DNA of 22,377 nucleotides from a virus. Under the pieces are notes generated by a model. The model was not told the origin of the DNA and did not search any database. It saw nothing but the letters and a program-made list of their open reading frames with translations. The DNA is taken from UHGV virus genome UHGV-0172060; one strand, given 5' to 3'. Every line of letters starts with the position of its first letter. Within the stretch, counting starts at the first letter, position 1. The position numbers were made by a program, and so were the translations under genes. This document shows positions 4,942-9,017 of the stretch, one piece after another.

Positions 4942-5634
4942 TTAATTGTGTCGCTTAAGGGTTTGTGACTGACTGATTAAGACCTTTCCAAAGACCATAA
5001 ACCGGTGTTCGTTTTCGCTGGTAATTCCCCATTCGCGGTAAATCTGATTATCAGAAATTACCAGCAGTTTATCAGGTATCATTTGCAGTCGTTTGACGTA
5101 AATTTTATCATCAAAACCAAATACATATATACCATCCCCATCAAACTGATTGATACTGATATCAACGAAGATGAGATCTCCTGGCTCAATGGTTGGACAC
5201 ATACTGTCCCCACGAACGTTGATAACTTTAATGTGATTTGCTGGTCGTCCACCAAACATCGATACAGCATTATCAGTTCTGTATTCAATGGCATGAATCA
5301 CATCAATGACATCACCGCCCTGGATAAGGCCATTTCCCGCACTGGCACTGACATCCAGCATTTCAATACGGAATACATCCTTCACCTGCGCAACATCCTC
5401 ACTAATACTGTTTTTACATACAGTATTACTTTTGAGGTCTGAGGTAAAGAGATCAGCAATATCAACACCTAAGCTCCTGGCAATATTACTCAGGGCTTGT
5501 TCAGTGAATTGTTTCTGCTTACCTGTTTCGAGGCGCGAGATATTCGCCGCATCCACTCCTATTGCTTCAGCGAGATCGGCGATTTTCATGTTCTTCGCCT
5601 GGCGAAGTTGTCTGACTCGATTTCCTATGTTCAT
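4942..5634 (-). CDS. cI-like prophage repressor (XRE HTH + S24 LexA-like peptidase domain)
   Basis: N-terminal HTH (RQLRQAKNMKIADLAEAIGVDAANISRLETGK); C-terminal S24 signatures (GDSMCPTI serine, VKRL lysine); divergent from a cro-like gene. Confidence 0.9.
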   Translation of the reverse strand: MNIGNRVRQLRQAKNMKIADLAEAIGVDAANISRLETGKQKQFTEQALSNIARSLGVDIADLFTSDLKSNTVCKNSISEDVAQVKDVFRIEMLDVSASAGNGLIQGGDVIDVIHAIEYRTDNAVSMFGGRPANHIKVINVRGDSMCPTIEPGDLIFVDISINQFDGDGIYVFGFDDKIYVKRLQMIPDKLLVISDNQIYREWGITSENEHRFMVFGKVLISQSQTLKRHN

Positions 5635-5731
5635 GCGTTTATTACATTTCTTTATTGCGCGTTAAGCAAATCAACTTGCGCAAAATATTTGCGTGAAATA
5701 ATATGCTCATCACGCAATATGTGGAGGTTAT
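5635..5731. promoter_or_regulatory. divergent PRM/PR promoter region with operator repeats (OR-like)
   Basis: Sits between the divergent repressor and cro-like starts. Candidate PR: -35 TTGCGC, 17 nt, -10 TAATAT. Operator-like sites ATTGCGCGTTAAGCAAA (5654-5670), TATGCTCATCACGCAAT (5702-5718) and palindrome CGCAAAATATTTGCG (5677-5691). Confidence 0.6.
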
Positions 5732-5992
5732 ATGCAATCACCATTACGGAATGTGCGTAAGGCGCACGGATTTACTTTGCAGCATGTTGCTGCGGGCGTT
5801 CAGGTCAATCCAGCGACGCTGAGTCGTATTGAAAGACTGGAACAAATTCCATCTATCGATCTTGCAGAACGTCTGGCCAATTTTTTTAAGGGTGAAATCA
5901 GCGAAATGCAGATTCTTTATCCGGCACGTTTTCAATCTAGCCAAAACCAGAATGGGTTTAAACCACAGGAACAGGAGGTAAGCCGTGGGTAA
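5732..5992 (+). CDS. Cro-like XRE-family HTH regulator
   Basis: 86-aa HTH protein (GFTLQHVAAGVQVNPATLSRIER) transcribed divergently from the repressor; GGAGG SD. Confidence 0.8.
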   Translation: MQSPLRNVRKAHGFTLQHVAAGVQVNPATLSRIERLEQIPSIDLAERLANFFKGEISEMQILYPARFQSSQNQNGFKPQEQEVSRG

Positions 5993-6536
5993 GCATCATT
6001 GGAAAGTGGAAAAACAACCTGAGTGGTACGTGAAAGCTGTCAGAAAAACTATCGCGGCATTGCCAGGGGGTTACGCTGAAGCTGCTGACTGGCTGGATGT
6101 AACAGAGAACGCTTTATTCAACCGCCTTCGTGCAGATGGCGATCAGATTTTCCCGTTGGGATGGGCAATGGTTTTACAGCGTGCTGCTGGCAATCACCAC
6201 ATTGCGGATGCTGTCGCACAGTCTGCTGGTGGGGTGTTTGTATCACTTCCTGAAATTGAGGAAGTAGAGAACGCCGATATCAACCAGCGCCTGCTGGAGG
6301 TCATTGAACAGATCGGCAGTTATTCCAGACAGATTCGTTCAGCAATTGAAGACGGGGTGGTGGAACCACACGAGCAGGCAGCAATTAACGACGAGCTGTA
6401 CATGTCAATTTCGAAGCTGCAGGAGCATGCAGCACTGGTCTACAAAATCTTTTGCGCTCCAGAAAAGAGTGACGCCCGCGAGTGTGCAGCTCCGGGCGCC
6501 GTGGCGTTTTGTGTCTGTGGAGAAACTAACGCATGA
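5985..6536 (+). CDS. CII-like/YdaT-family early regulatory protein (putative)
   Basis: 183-aa ORF with GTG start and AGGAGG SD, overlapping the end of cro; its position after cro matches the CII/YdaT slot of lambdoid and Rac-type prophages. Family assignment tentative. Confidence 0.5.
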
Positions 6537-6871
6537 ACAGTTTAACAACACACTACCGTCGCTCGCAACTGATTGCGCTTCCTGTACCGGGTGGAAAAGC
6601 GAAGGTGGAGTATTGCTATGCAGTGAATGTACCAGGTGACAGGGAAATTGTAACCCACAGCTTTGCAGAGTGGGCTGTGGGTGATTTCAACCGGCAGAAG
6701 GAGACAGTCCTTTGCGACAAGTTAACCGCTGGTTCAAAGATCACTACGGAGTGCCCGTCAGAGTCATTCGTTGGGAGCCGGAAACACAACGGGTTATCTA
6801 CCTCCGTGAAGGCTATGAACATGAATGCTTCAGTCCGCTCGAACAGTTTCGTCGTAAATTCAGGGAAATAG
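6533..6871 (+). CDS. hypothetical protein (ORF A; N-terminal half looks protein-like, C-terminal half looks out of frame)
   Basis: ATGA-coupled start at 6533, ends 9 nt before the O-like start; the C-terminal ~50 aa are Ser/Asn-rich and overlap a better-looking ORF in another frame. Confidence 0.35.
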
Positions 6872-6924
6872 AGGTCGGTCATGAGCCTGTTAATGACATC
6901 CCAGCCCATTGTGATAAATCGTGA
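6712..6924 (+). CDS. hypothetical small protein (ORF B, GYEHEC-motif protein)
   Basis: TTG start with near-ideal SD (AAGGAGA, 7-nt spacer); protein-like composition ([33 protein letters not shown]); overlaps ORF A and the O-like start. Confidence 0.45.
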
Positions 6925-7873
6925 TCTTGCATGCCGTATTGGTCTGAATGAGGCAATTGTGTTGCAGCAGCTTCATTACTGGCTGAATGAAACGAATTCA
7001 GGCACTGAGCATGGCGGAATTCGCTGGGTTTATAACACGACAGAACAGTGGCTGGAGCAGTTTCCGTTCTGGTCAGAGTCCACTCTGAAACGCACATTTG
7101 CAAGCCTGAAATCACTTGGGGTTTTGCGTCGCGAGCAACTCAATAAATCGAAGCGTGACATGACCAACTTCTACACGATCAACTATGAAAGTGAGCTTTT
7201 AGAAGAGGTCAAAGTGAACGAATCGATCAGGTCAAAATGCACTTCTCCATCGGGTCAAAGTGACCTGATGGATGGGCGCAAAATGACACGATCCATTGGT
7301 TCAAAACGACACGCTGTCATCGGGTCAAAATGGCCCAATGATCTTACAGAGAATACAACAGAGATTACTACAGAGAATAAAACCTCTTCTCGTCCGGACG
7401 CTTCGCAACCGGACACGCAAACGGCTGAACAGGAGTTTTTTACTCGCCATCCTGATGCGGTTGTATTCAGCCCTAAAAAGCGCCAGTGGGGAACGCAGGA
7501 TGATTTGACCTGCGCACAGTGGCTCTGGAAAAAAATCATCGCCCTGTACGAGCAGGCCGCCGAATGTGACGGCGAGGTGGTTCGTCCCAAAGAACCGAAC
7601 TGGACAGCCTGGGCAAACGAAATTCGCCTGATGTGTGTGCAGGATGGTCGTACTCACAAACAAATCTGCGAGATGTACAGCCGCGTCAGCCGCGATCCGT
7701 TCTGGTGCCGTAACGTGCTCAGCCCGTCGAAGTTGCGGGAAAAATGGGATGAGCTTTCCCTGCGCTTATCGCCGTCCGTCAGCACGCACACAGAAAAACG
7801 TGAAGACCCGTACTTCAAAGCCAGTTACGACAACGTGGACTACAGCCAGATCCCGGCAGGATTCAGGGGGTGA
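6881..7873 (+). CDS. replication initiator protein (lambda O-like) with origin iterons embedded in the coding sequence
   Basis: N-terminal DNA-binding-like region ([26 protein letters not shown]); central low-complexity linker encoded by direct repeats; GAGGT SD. Confidence 0.7.
   Translation: MSLLMTSQPIVINRDLACRIGLNEAIVLQQLHYWLNETNSGTEHGGIRWVYNTTEQWLEQFPFWSESTLKRTFASLKSLGVLRREQLNKSKRDMTNFYTINYESELLEEVKVNESIRSKCTSPSGQSDLMDGRKMTRSIGSKRHAVIGSKWPNDLTENTTEITTENKTSSRPDASQPDTQTAEQEFFTRHPDAVVFSPKKRQWGTQDDLTCAQWLWKKIIALYEQAAECDGEVVRPKEPNWTAWANEIRLMCVQDGRTHKQICEMYSRVSRDPFWCRNVLSPSKLREKWDELSLRLSPSVSTHTEKREDPYFKASYDNVDYSQIPAGFRG
7205..7390. repeat. candidate replication origin: about five iterons at ~23-bp spacing plus three 12-bp ACAGAGA A-rich repeats
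   Basis: Iterons (a/g)TC(g/a)GGTCAAA(a/g)TG centred near 7210, 7233, 7256, 7302, 7326; then ACAGAGAATACA / ACAGAGATTACT / ACAGAGAATAAA at 7346, 7358, 7370. Confidence 0.65.
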
Positions 7874-7875
7874 TC

Positions 7876-8364
7876 ATGAGTCTTTTGAATGAAGTTCAGA
7901 AATTCATTGAAGCCCATCCGGGGTGTACTTCCGGAGACATTGCGGATGCTTTTGCAGGTTACTCACGGCAGCGCGTTCTGCAGTCAGCAAGCAAGTTACG
8001 TCAGAGTGGGCGTGTGGCTCACCGTTGTGAAGGAGATACACGCAGACATTTCCCACGCCTGACTGAGAGAGCGCAGGAGCCGGAACCACAACCAGTTCGT
8101 GAAACCAGACCTGTGCGCAATTTCTATGTCGGCACTAACGATCCCCGGGTGATTTTGTGCCTGACTCGCCAGGCGGAAGAACTGGAGTCCAGGGGCCTAT
8201 ACCGTCGTGCTGCAACGGTGTGGATGGCGGCATTCCGTGAAAGCCACTCCCAGCCAGAACGAAACAATTTTCTGGTGCGTCGTGAGCAGTGTTTACGGAA
8301 AAGCAGCAAGCGCGCTGTATCGGGTGATGAGTGGTATCTGTCAGGGAATTACGTGGGGGCTTAA
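7876..8364 (+). CDS. putative regulator with C-terminal PerC-like domain
   Basis: ATG 7876 with GGGGGTGA SD; C-terminal LTRQAEELESRGLYRRAATVWMAAFRE...VRREQCL matches the recalled PerC-family signature (LE..GL.RRAA..W...RR..CL). Confidence 0.5.
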   Translation: MSLLNEVQKFIEAHPGCTSGDIADAFAGYSRQRVLQSASKLRQSGRVAHRCEGDTRRHFPRLTERAQEPEPQPVRETRPVRNFYVGTNDPRVILCLTRQAEELESRGLYRRAATVWMAAFRESHSQPERNNFLVRREQCLRKSSKRAVSGDEWYLSGNYVGA

Positions 8365-9017
8365 TGAGTAATAAATATTGCCAGGAGCTGGTGGAACTGC
8401 GGAACAAACCAGCCCATGAACTGAAGGAAGTGGGTGATCAGTGGCGCACGCCGGACAACATTTTCTGGGGAATTAACACCCTGTTTGGCCCGTTTGTTCT
8501 GGATCTGTTCACTGACGGTGATAACGCCAAATGTACCGCGTATTACACGGCGGAAGACAACGCGCTGGCGCATGACTGGTCAGAACGCCTTGCGGAGCTT
8601 AAAGGTGCTGCCTTTGGTAATCCTCCATACAGCCGCGCCAGTCAGCATGAGGGGCAATACATCACCGGCATGCGTTACATCATGAAACATGCCAGTGCCA
8701 TGCGTGATAAGGGCGGGCGCTATGTTTTCCTGATCAAAGCTGCCACCAGCGAAGTGTGGTGGCCGGAAGATGCAGATCATATTGCTTTTATTCGCGGGCG
8801 TATTGGTTTTGAACTGCCTGTCTGGTTTATCCCGAAAGACGAGAAGCAGGTACCGACAGGAGCTTTTTTCGCTGGTGCTATTGCTGTTTTTGACAAGACC
8901 TGGAAGGGATCGGCAATCAGCTACATCGGGCGCGATGAACTTGAGGCATGTGGTGAGGCGTTTCTGGCGCAGGTTCGCCAGCAGGCGGAAAAACTGGTCA
9001 GGGAGATGGCGGCATGA
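8364..9017 (+). CDS. phage Dam-like N6-adenine DNA methyltransferase (orphan)
   Basis: FGNPPYS catalytic motif (NPPY); ~217 aa; TAATG-coupled start with GGGGG SD; no adjacent restriction endonuclease. Confidence 0.75.
   Translation: MSNKYCQELVELRNKPAHELKEVGDQWRTPDNIFWGINTLFGPFVLDLFTDGDNAKCTAYYTAEDNALAHDWSERLAELKGAAFGNPPYSRASQHEGQYITGMRYIMKHASAMRDKGGRYVFLIKAATSEVWWPEDADHIAFIRGRIGFELPVWFIPKDEKQVPTGAFFAGAIAVFDKTWKGSAISYIGRDELEACGEAFLAQVRQQAEKLVREMAA

Follow-up and report, generated by a model that had tools for sequence, protein, structure and literature searches.

The window analysed in this study is a stretch of 22,377 nucleotides of viral DNA (UHGV-0172060), that of a lambdoid prophage from the SfII / SfIV / mEp460_4F5 group. 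It contains an open reading frame for a replication initiator similar to the O protein of phage lambda (O-like protein, 330 amino acids; 6881-7873; PHROG 391), and two sets of short direct repeats followed by a palindrome are embedded in the middle of this gene. The question is why such repeats are present inside a coding sequence and what they do there. All coordinates refer to the whole window, and all features of the initiator gene and its repeats are on the plus strand. We conclude that the region from 7203 to 7414 is most probably a prophage replication origin similar to the lambda ori, located inside the gene of its own binding protein. This conclusion is drawn from the sequence, because the longer repeats shift their reading frame, conservation of the repeats lacks codon periodicity, the repeats are exchanged together with the N-terminal domain as a cassette, the C-terminal half is homologous to that of lambda O, and the layout matches that of lambda.

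The first set of repeats consists of 23-bp iterons. The initial annotation described about five direct repeats with this spacing at 7205-7337. Tandem Repeats Finder reported a period of 23 with 5.4 copies at 7207-7332, and six units are in register at 7203-7341, starting at 7203, 7226, 7249, 7272, 7295 and 7319 (spacing of 23, 23, 23, 23 and 24 bp). Thus, the repeats and their spacing are real, but the number is six. The six iterons encode residues 108-154 of the 330. The consensus proposed initially, RTCRGGTCAAARTG, is exact in three units, with two mismatches in one unit and three mismatches in two. Iteron 1 (AAGAGGTCAAAGTGAACGAATCG, 7203-7225) contains the core GGTCAAAGTG exactly, and iteron 2 is ATCAGGTCAAAATGCACTTCTCC (7226-7248). 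Iteron 3 (ATCGGGTCAAAGTGACCTGATGG, 7249-7271) is the most dyad-symmetric unit (16/21 self-complementary), and an imperfect inverted repeat of 43 nt is centred on it. Iteron 4 (ATGGGCGCAAAATGACACGATCC, 7272-7294) has a diverged core with three mismatches, and this unit is GAGGTCAAAGTGA in relatives. The core of iteron 5 (ATTGGTTCAAAACGACACGCTGTC, 7295-7318) is also diverged. Iteron 6 (ATCGGGTCAAAATGGCCCAATGA, 7319-7341) is again dyad-symmetric (14/21) and adjoins the second set of repeats. Across the 22.4-kb window, the core GGTCAAARTG was found at four places, all in the array, compared with 0.13 in shuffled sequences, none of which reached four in 100 trials. A weight matrix made from the six units scored at least 23.8 at those units alone, and the best score elsewhere in the window was 10.4. 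When the iteron region was folded as single-stranded DNA, a z score of -3.0 was obtained because the iterons are dyad-symmetric. An RNA element was ruled out, since the folding score is explained in this way and Rfam gave no match at E <= 1 within 6400-8400.

The second set consists of three 12-bp repeats, ACAGAGAATACA, ACAGAGATTACT and ACAGAGAATAAA (7346-7381), which are units of ACAGAGAnTAc and are the presumed DNA unwinding element (DUE). Tandem Repeats Finder reported a period of 12 with 3.2 copies at 7346-7383. Three copies of the motif ACAGAGANTA are present in the window (7346, 7358 and 7370); shuffled sequences gave 0.11, and 0 of 100 reached three. Three A-rich ACAGAGA repeats of 12 bp had been annotated here with an end at 7376, but the third copy starts at 7370, so that the array ends at 7381. 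No other 40-bp duplex in 5700-9000 is as unstable as the segment 7343-7382, which is at the 99.6th percentile of the window. GC content of the 12-mer block is 0.32, compared with 0.50 for the gene, and its top strand is 71% purine. On the 3' side of the 12-mers lies a weak palindrome, GTCCGG-N11-CCGGAC (7392-7414), with 6-bp arms and an 11-bp spacer, which is the positional analogue of the palindrome of the lambda ori. Many relatives (L048, L050, L063 and others) have a near-perfect 23-bp palindrome with 10-11-bp arms at the same place, GTCCGGTTGCG.CGCAACCrGAC, and inverted repeats after the 12-mers average 7.2, compared with 5.5 in control segments. Other kinds of elements were also considered and rejected. 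There is no sigma-70-like site inside the O-like gene and terminator-like matches are at chance level, which excludes an internal promoter or terminator, and neither a perfect DnaA box nor an IHF consensus was found near the origin.

The 12-mer is shared far beyond this prophage. We scanned IMG/VR for the exact two-copy tandem pattern ACAGAGANTACNACAGAGANTAC and found at least 120 viral contigs (L042-L161). In this set, which was chosen by the 12-mer DNA motif itself, ACAGAGAnTAC is invariant beside at least 33 iteron types, that is, unrelated sequence groups of arrays that accompany one N-terminal domain family, at loci with GC content from 0.29 to 0.64. The open reading frame carrying the motif belongs to the same N-terminal domain family in 112 of the 120 matches listed, and most of the others end at a contig end. 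Tandem Repeats Finder detected arrays of 20-25 bp on the 5' side of the 12-mers in 76 of the 120 listed loci, with a period of 23 in 60. The C-terminal domains encoded behind the 12-mers vary, the type found in the window being present in 44 of the 120 listed contigs. The same 12-mer is also found in homologues of Bacillus, Lysinibacillus, Lactiplantibacillus and Deferribacterales (L033, L035, L164, L166). In some of these homologues, the spacing of the 12-mers is 11 bp, which places successive copies in different frames. Copies of the 12-mer lie in different frames in L033 of Bacillus, L166 of Lysinibacillus, L034 and L105. As read from these sequences, the architecture of the family is a winged-helix domain, variable 23-bp iterons, invariant 12-mers, often a palindrome, and an interchangeable C-terminal domain. 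Because the sequence of the 12-mers is kept, beyond their A/T content, specific reading is suggested, and the 12-mers may well be a specifically read unwinding or loading element.

Comparison of the window with Shigella phage SfII (L002) by blastn showed that the repeats are exchanged together with part of the initiator. Identity is 93% up to 6886 and 98% from 7377, and no similarity was found between these positions. The exchanged cassette (6887-7376) contains the N-terminal domain, the iterons and the 12-mers. In the corresponding interval, SfII has an HTH_36 N-terminal domain and its own 15-bp repeats, TCTGACCCGTCAAAA. The cII gene, orf112, which is the gene directly 5' of the O-like gene, and the PerC-like gene that follows it are unchanged between the two phages while the N-terminal domain and the repeats are swapped. 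Since only the N-terminal domain of the O-like protein swaps together with the repeats, this domain, rather than a neighbouring protein, is suggested to be the reader of the iterons. Other relatives show the same association. In L012, residues of the wing are altered and the iterons are AAGGACAATCTGTCCC, and L009 has a different N-terminal domain, iterons of CCGCAAACAAGAATGCGG and degenerate 12-mers. In HannyBb (78% identity), the iterons are kept and the 12-mers are identical to those of the window, and this phage has neither orf112 nor the PerC-like gene. Absence of the repeats from otherwise conserved homologues had been named as evidence against an origin. In nearly all homologues examined, however, Tandem Repeats Finder detected an array, and those in which it detected none still hold iteron cores or 12-mers. 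Two further observations were made on the exchanged interval. The mosaic breakpoints at 6886 and 7377 are sharp and bound an origin-specificity cassette, and the cassette of SfII has an A-rich repeat of its own, GATCCGTCAG(T/A)AAAA.

The breakpoint at 7377 lies inside the last 12-mer, and such a position would be expected if the 12-mers and the palindrome owed their conservation chiefly to a role as a recombination linker that joins the origin-specificity cassette to interchangeable C-terminal domains. The type of C-terminal domain indeed switches right after the 12-mers and the palindrome in L014 and L016-L020, and the degenerate 12-mers of L009 accompany a different N-terminal domain. We nevertheless consider this explanation unlikely. 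Recombination cannot keep a sequence constant across hosts (Bacillales, Lactobacillales and Deferribacterales among them) whose GC content ranges from 0.29 to 0.64, and the 12-mer block is the minimum of duplex stability at the position of the AT-rich unwinding region of lambda. The two roles are not exclusive, and the 12-mers could serve both for recombination and for unwinding.

It is still less probable that the 23-bp repeats serve autoregulation, copy control, exclusion or partition, bound by the O-like, PerC-like or cII protein, with the origin located elsewhere. Iterons of plasmids are also used for copy control and autorepression (PMC4980987), so that an array of this kind could have such a function. 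In SfII, however, the cII, orf112 and PerC-like genes are 93-98% identical to those of the window and the repeats change with the N-terminal domain of the O-like protein alone, and HannyBb keeps the repeats without its orf112 and PerC-like neighbours. Since HannyBb has this origin type without them, orf112 and the PerC-like gene were excluded as obligate partners. Moreover, the repeats are always beside the least stable duplex and a palindrome, which is weak in the window, as in the mapped ori of lambda, and we found no other repeat array and no initiator gene besides the O-like gene in the region 6800-7900.

The origin reading is further supported by the way in which the repeats are conserved. 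The codon phases at which the 23-bp units begin are 1, 0, 2, 1, 0 and 0, and the encoded peptides therefore differ from unit to unit. We aligned 13 homologues, collected by protein similarity from bacterial genomes and phages, and calculated conservation at codon positions 1, 2 and 3. The N-terminal domain showed the usual coding pattern (0.86, 0.93 and 0.64), the iterons were flat (0.82, 0.85 and 0.82), and the 12-mers were inverted (0.98, 0.80 and 0.97). The sole variable base in the 12-mers of these homologues is at a second, non-synonymous codon position. In a comparable set of homologues, Glu codons in the 12-mers are GAG in 42 of 42 cases, compared with 163 GAG and 228 GAA elsewhere in the same genes, and the Thr codons ACC and ACG are never used. 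Judged by this pattern of conservation, it was shown that the repeats act as a DNA element and not as a peptide. It is thus very improbable that they merely reflect a low-complexity repetitive linker peptide without a function as DNA: the segment does encode a linker that AlphaFold2 predicts to be disordered, the 12-bp units are in frame and encode TENT/TEIT/TENK, and the motif is read as TExT in 118 of the 120 viral contigs listed, a set chosen by the DNA motif, but the 23-bp units give unlike peptides, the iterons lack third-position relaxation, synonymous sites of the 12-mers are near-invariant while the non-synonymous site varies, codon choice is restricted to GAG and avoids ACC and ACG, and several distant members carry the motif in other frames.

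The O-like protein has two domains joined by a linker. Its annotation as O-like is borne out by a match to PHROG 391, 'replication initiation O-like' (E 6e-101), and by BLASTP, in which residues 147-294 align with residues 135-270 of lambda O (33% identity, E 9e-27). This E value indicates that the C-terminal half is a genuine domain of the lambda O type. No Pfam or NCBIfam family matched the protein at E 0.01, so that neither domain is covered, and only weak matches to Slx4 and Cdc6_C appeared at E up to 10. The N-terminal domain (residues 1-108; 6881-7204), the presumed reader of the iterons, is predicted to be a winged helix by AlphaFold2 and Foldseek. The model has the order helix-strand-helix-helix-strand-strand at residues 14-101, with a predicted local distance difference test score (pLDDT) of 55-77, and the top Foldseek matches in the PDB are the N-terminal domains of RepA_N plasmid initiators (5kbj, 4pql and 4pt7). 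This domain does not belong to Pfam Phage_rep_O (PF04492), the N-terminal family of lambda O, at E 0.01, and BLASTP found no similarity between the N-terminal halves of the two proteins. Residues 109-203 form a disordered linker between the domains in the AlphaFold2 model (pLDDT ~25). The whole repeat element, iterons and 12-mers, encodes residues 108-168, and this agrees with the initial annotation, in which the repeats were placed in the linker-coding part of the gene. The C-terminal helical domain (about residues 190-294; 7448-7762) was modelled with a pLDDT of 88. It has no significant relative in the PDB, and its family has 2693 representatives at E <= 0.001. The C-terminal domain of lambda O is its P-binding half. 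Among the homologues, three proteins of about 785 amino acids from metagenome-assembled genomes of Deferribacterales and Proteobacteria (L035, L036 and L037) contain the N-terminal domain in two tandem copies. Behind these are a 21-bp repeat in 5-10 copies and a C-terminal extension that is long and rich in Cys. In appearance, these proteins are a far larger relative of the O-like initiator.

As had been annotated, the O-like gene is not followed by a P-like or DnaC-like loader gene, and the next gene encodes a PerC-like protein, confirmed by a Pfam match (PF06069). A DnaB gene does not follow either. The whole genome of SfII also contains no loader or helicase gene, and neither the PerC-like protein nor the orf112 protein looks like a helicase loader. 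The C-terminal tail of the O-like protein, SQIPAGFRG (7844-7870), differs at a single residue from the nine that end E. coli DnaT, SQIPPGFRG (8 of 9 identical; BLASTP, MG1655), and the end motif IPxGFRG is at the extreme C-terminus of both proteins. The tail is present on 19 of 150 family representatives and is also found on initiators with a C-terminal domain of the Phg_2220_C type. Among loci with a readable next gene, a DnaC-like, DnaB or P-like gene comes next in 2 of 41 with a tail-bearing initiator and in 25 of 56 with a tail-less one (Fisher 8e-6, uncorrected for relatedness). Some phage records label this protein 'Primosomal protein I', that is, DnaT. This label is not supported, because the core of the O-like protein is not DnaT-like: the core domains are not detectably related, the DNA-binding three-helix-bundle domain of DnaT was not found in the O-like protein, and only the tail is common to both. 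Recruitment of the host's complex of helicase and loader by the tail is plausible but weak, and we put it forward as a tentative proposal.

Taken together, these features suggest the following mechanism, in which we infer iteron binding, unwinding at the 12-mers and the route of helicase recruitment. The O-like gene belongs to the early rightward operon, behind cro, cII and orf112, and would hence be transcribed after induction. The N-terminal winged-helix domain would bind the six partly dyad-symmetric iterons, probably as dimers, and form a complex like the O-some. The resulting strain would open the adjacent block of three 12-bp ACAGAGAnTAc repeats, the least stable duplex of the region, and one strand of the 12-mers would probably also be read specifically, as the Rep proteins of iteron plasmids read 13-mers. 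Because no P, DnaC or DnaB gene is present, the lambda O-type C-terminal domain and the SQIPAGFRG tail may bring in host DnaB-DnaC directly. A wider reading joins these points. In this reading, ACAGAGAnTAC is an undescribed origin element that spans phyla and stays constant while the iterons diversify into dozens of specificities; one of its strands is read by the conserved part of the winged-helix domain of this family, or the element is a mark for helicase loading; and members without P recruit host DnaB-DnaC through a short C-terminal motif that was copied from DnaT or is shared with it. We regard this combination as possible, with rather less than an even chance of being correct as a whole. 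If it is true, it points to a function for the tail of DnaT.

Several points weigh against the origin reading and its parts. Iterons 4 and 5 diverge from the core in the window, and the A-rich block is moderately A/T-rich, with a GC content of 0.32 compared with 0.22 in lambda. Confidence in the model of the N-terminal domain is moderate, and its fold matches are weak (E 0.03-0.07, TM score ~0.44). The viral contigs were collected through the 12-mer itself, and in 44 of the 120 listed loci, Tandem Repeats Finder detected no array on the 5' side of the 12-mers. In the literature, with subscription journals not covered, we found no description of the 12-mer sequence or of the O-like family. The association between tail and missing loader gene includes related loci, as its statistic carries no correction for them. 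Comparison of the C-terminal core with DnaT gave a hidden Markov model E value of 0.12, an hhalign probability of 0.14 and no fold match, and a role for the DnaT tail was not found in the DnaT literature consulted. The recruitment step is therefore the weakest link of the proposed mechanism.

The surrounding genes are those of a lambdoid early region. A cI-like repressor is encoded on the minus strand at 4942-5634, followed by cro-like (5732-5992) and cII-like (5985-6536) genes and by orf112 (6533-6871), which encodes a 112-amino-acid protein of PHROG 1170 with no known function. Downstream of the O-like gene are the PerC-like gene (7870-8364), whose product has a winged-helix N-terminal part and a PerC domain, and a Dam methylase gene two genes downstream of the O-like gene (8331-9017). 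Genes for a LexA-type DNA-binding protein, RusA and a KilA-N protein come after Dam. The PerC-like gene is the commonest gene on the 3' side of this type of O-like initiator, yet it is missing from HannyBb. GATC sites are found at 7177, 7225, 7290 and 7340, that is, four within 7170-7345 compared with 0.8 expected (Poisson P ~0.009). Three of these four are at iteron borders, and the phage carries its own Dam gene. Control of the origin by methylation is conceivable.

This origin type is widespread in E. coli. A 1.9-kb query around the origin matched Escherichia virus mEp460_4F5 with 97.9% identity across 99% of the query and SfII with 97% identity across 75%. Of the 5426 complete E. coli genomes, 1772 (about a third) contain the origin segment at >=80% coverage, and the type is also found in serotype-converting Shigella phages. 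The RefSeq name of the O-like gene is 'hypothetical protein' in the top E. coli matches listed, and phage records name it 'O protein', 'primosomal protein' or 'replication protein'. A circular E. coli 'plasmid' record of 43,680 bp (NZ_CP081704.1; L163) is a complete phage genome with the same replication module. Its initiator is 98% identical to the O-like protein, and a typed plasmid replicon is absent from the record. Probably a phage that had been excised or was replicating was caught in the assembly.

The lambda-type origin is known as a kind. The family of the N-terminal domain, the sequence-invariant 12-mer, the lack of a P gene and the DnaT-like tail appear to be uncharacterised. The order of winged-helix domain, 23-bp repeats and ACAGAGAnTAC repeats could be used as an annotation rule for phage origins. 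The iteron types, of which a single scaffold carries at least 33, would provide natural orthogonal pairs of origin and initiator for replicon engineering, and the origin type would help to explain replication incompatibility or exclusion among co-resident prophages. In addition, the invariant 12-mer may be a handle on how initiators without ATPase open DNA at a defined site, and the DnaT-like tail may be a handle on helicase recruitment when a phage brings no loader.

Among known systems, lambda is the closest, and the lambda ori layout proposed in the initial annotation agrees with lambda's own annotated ori in iterons, A-rich stretch and position in the gene. The lambda record has four 18-bp iterons, with a spacing of 20, 24 and 23 bp and with phases of 0, 2, 2 and 1, which encode residues 117-145 of the 299 residues of O. 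They are followed by a stretch with a GC content of 0.22 and 73% purine in the top strand, and then by the palindrome GTCAGAGAATTC...GAATCCTCTGAC. In both phages, the ori is in the middle of an initiator gene that comes after cro and cII and encodes a homologous C-terminal domain. Dyad-symmetric repeats about two helical turns apart shift in frame and encode the linker between the domains, and an A-rich, purine-rich and easily melted stretch lies promoter-distal of the iterons and is followed by a palindrome, which in the window is weak. Lambda variants of Stx phages have six iterons like the window. In lambda and Stx phages, the origin consists of iterons and an AT-rich tract halfway along the O gene, and the AT-rich DNA is bound by O in single-stranded form (PMC7466680). 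Unlike lambda, the window has an N-terminal domain outside Phage_rep_O, a different iteron sequence, a sequence-conserved 12-bp repeat instead of a plain AT tract, no P gene, and an extra C-terminal tail with the DnaT motif.

P22 and phage L have iterons within gene 18 (PMC8022706). As in the window, these iterons have their own sequence and are inside the initiator gene of a lambdoid replication module; unlike in the window, gene 18 is followed by gene 12, which encodes a phage helicase of the DnaB type. The RepA_N initiators of pSK41 and pTZ2162 (5kbj, 4pql and 4pt7), which have a winged-helix N-terminal domain, are the best though weak structural match to the modelled N-terminal domain of the O-like protein, but the sequences are not similar and the two kinds of protein have unrelated C-terminal domains. 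In RepA_N plasmids, the iterated origin is likewise inside the rep coding region. The 12-mers resemble the 13-mers of oriC and of the RK2 oriV in that both are short conserved direct repeats in an easily melted region beside known or presumed initiator sites, but the 12-mers are unrelated to them in sequence and are placed in a coding region. Rep proteins such as TrfA of RK2 and RepE of F bind one strand of the 13-mers in the DUE (PMC4980987). The last nine residues of DnaT match those of the O-like protein in all but one, and both proteins are thought to act upstream of DnaB-DnaC loading, which for DnaT is a proposal (PMC13377028). DnaT is a restart factor, whereas the O-like protein is presumed to be an origin-binding initiator.

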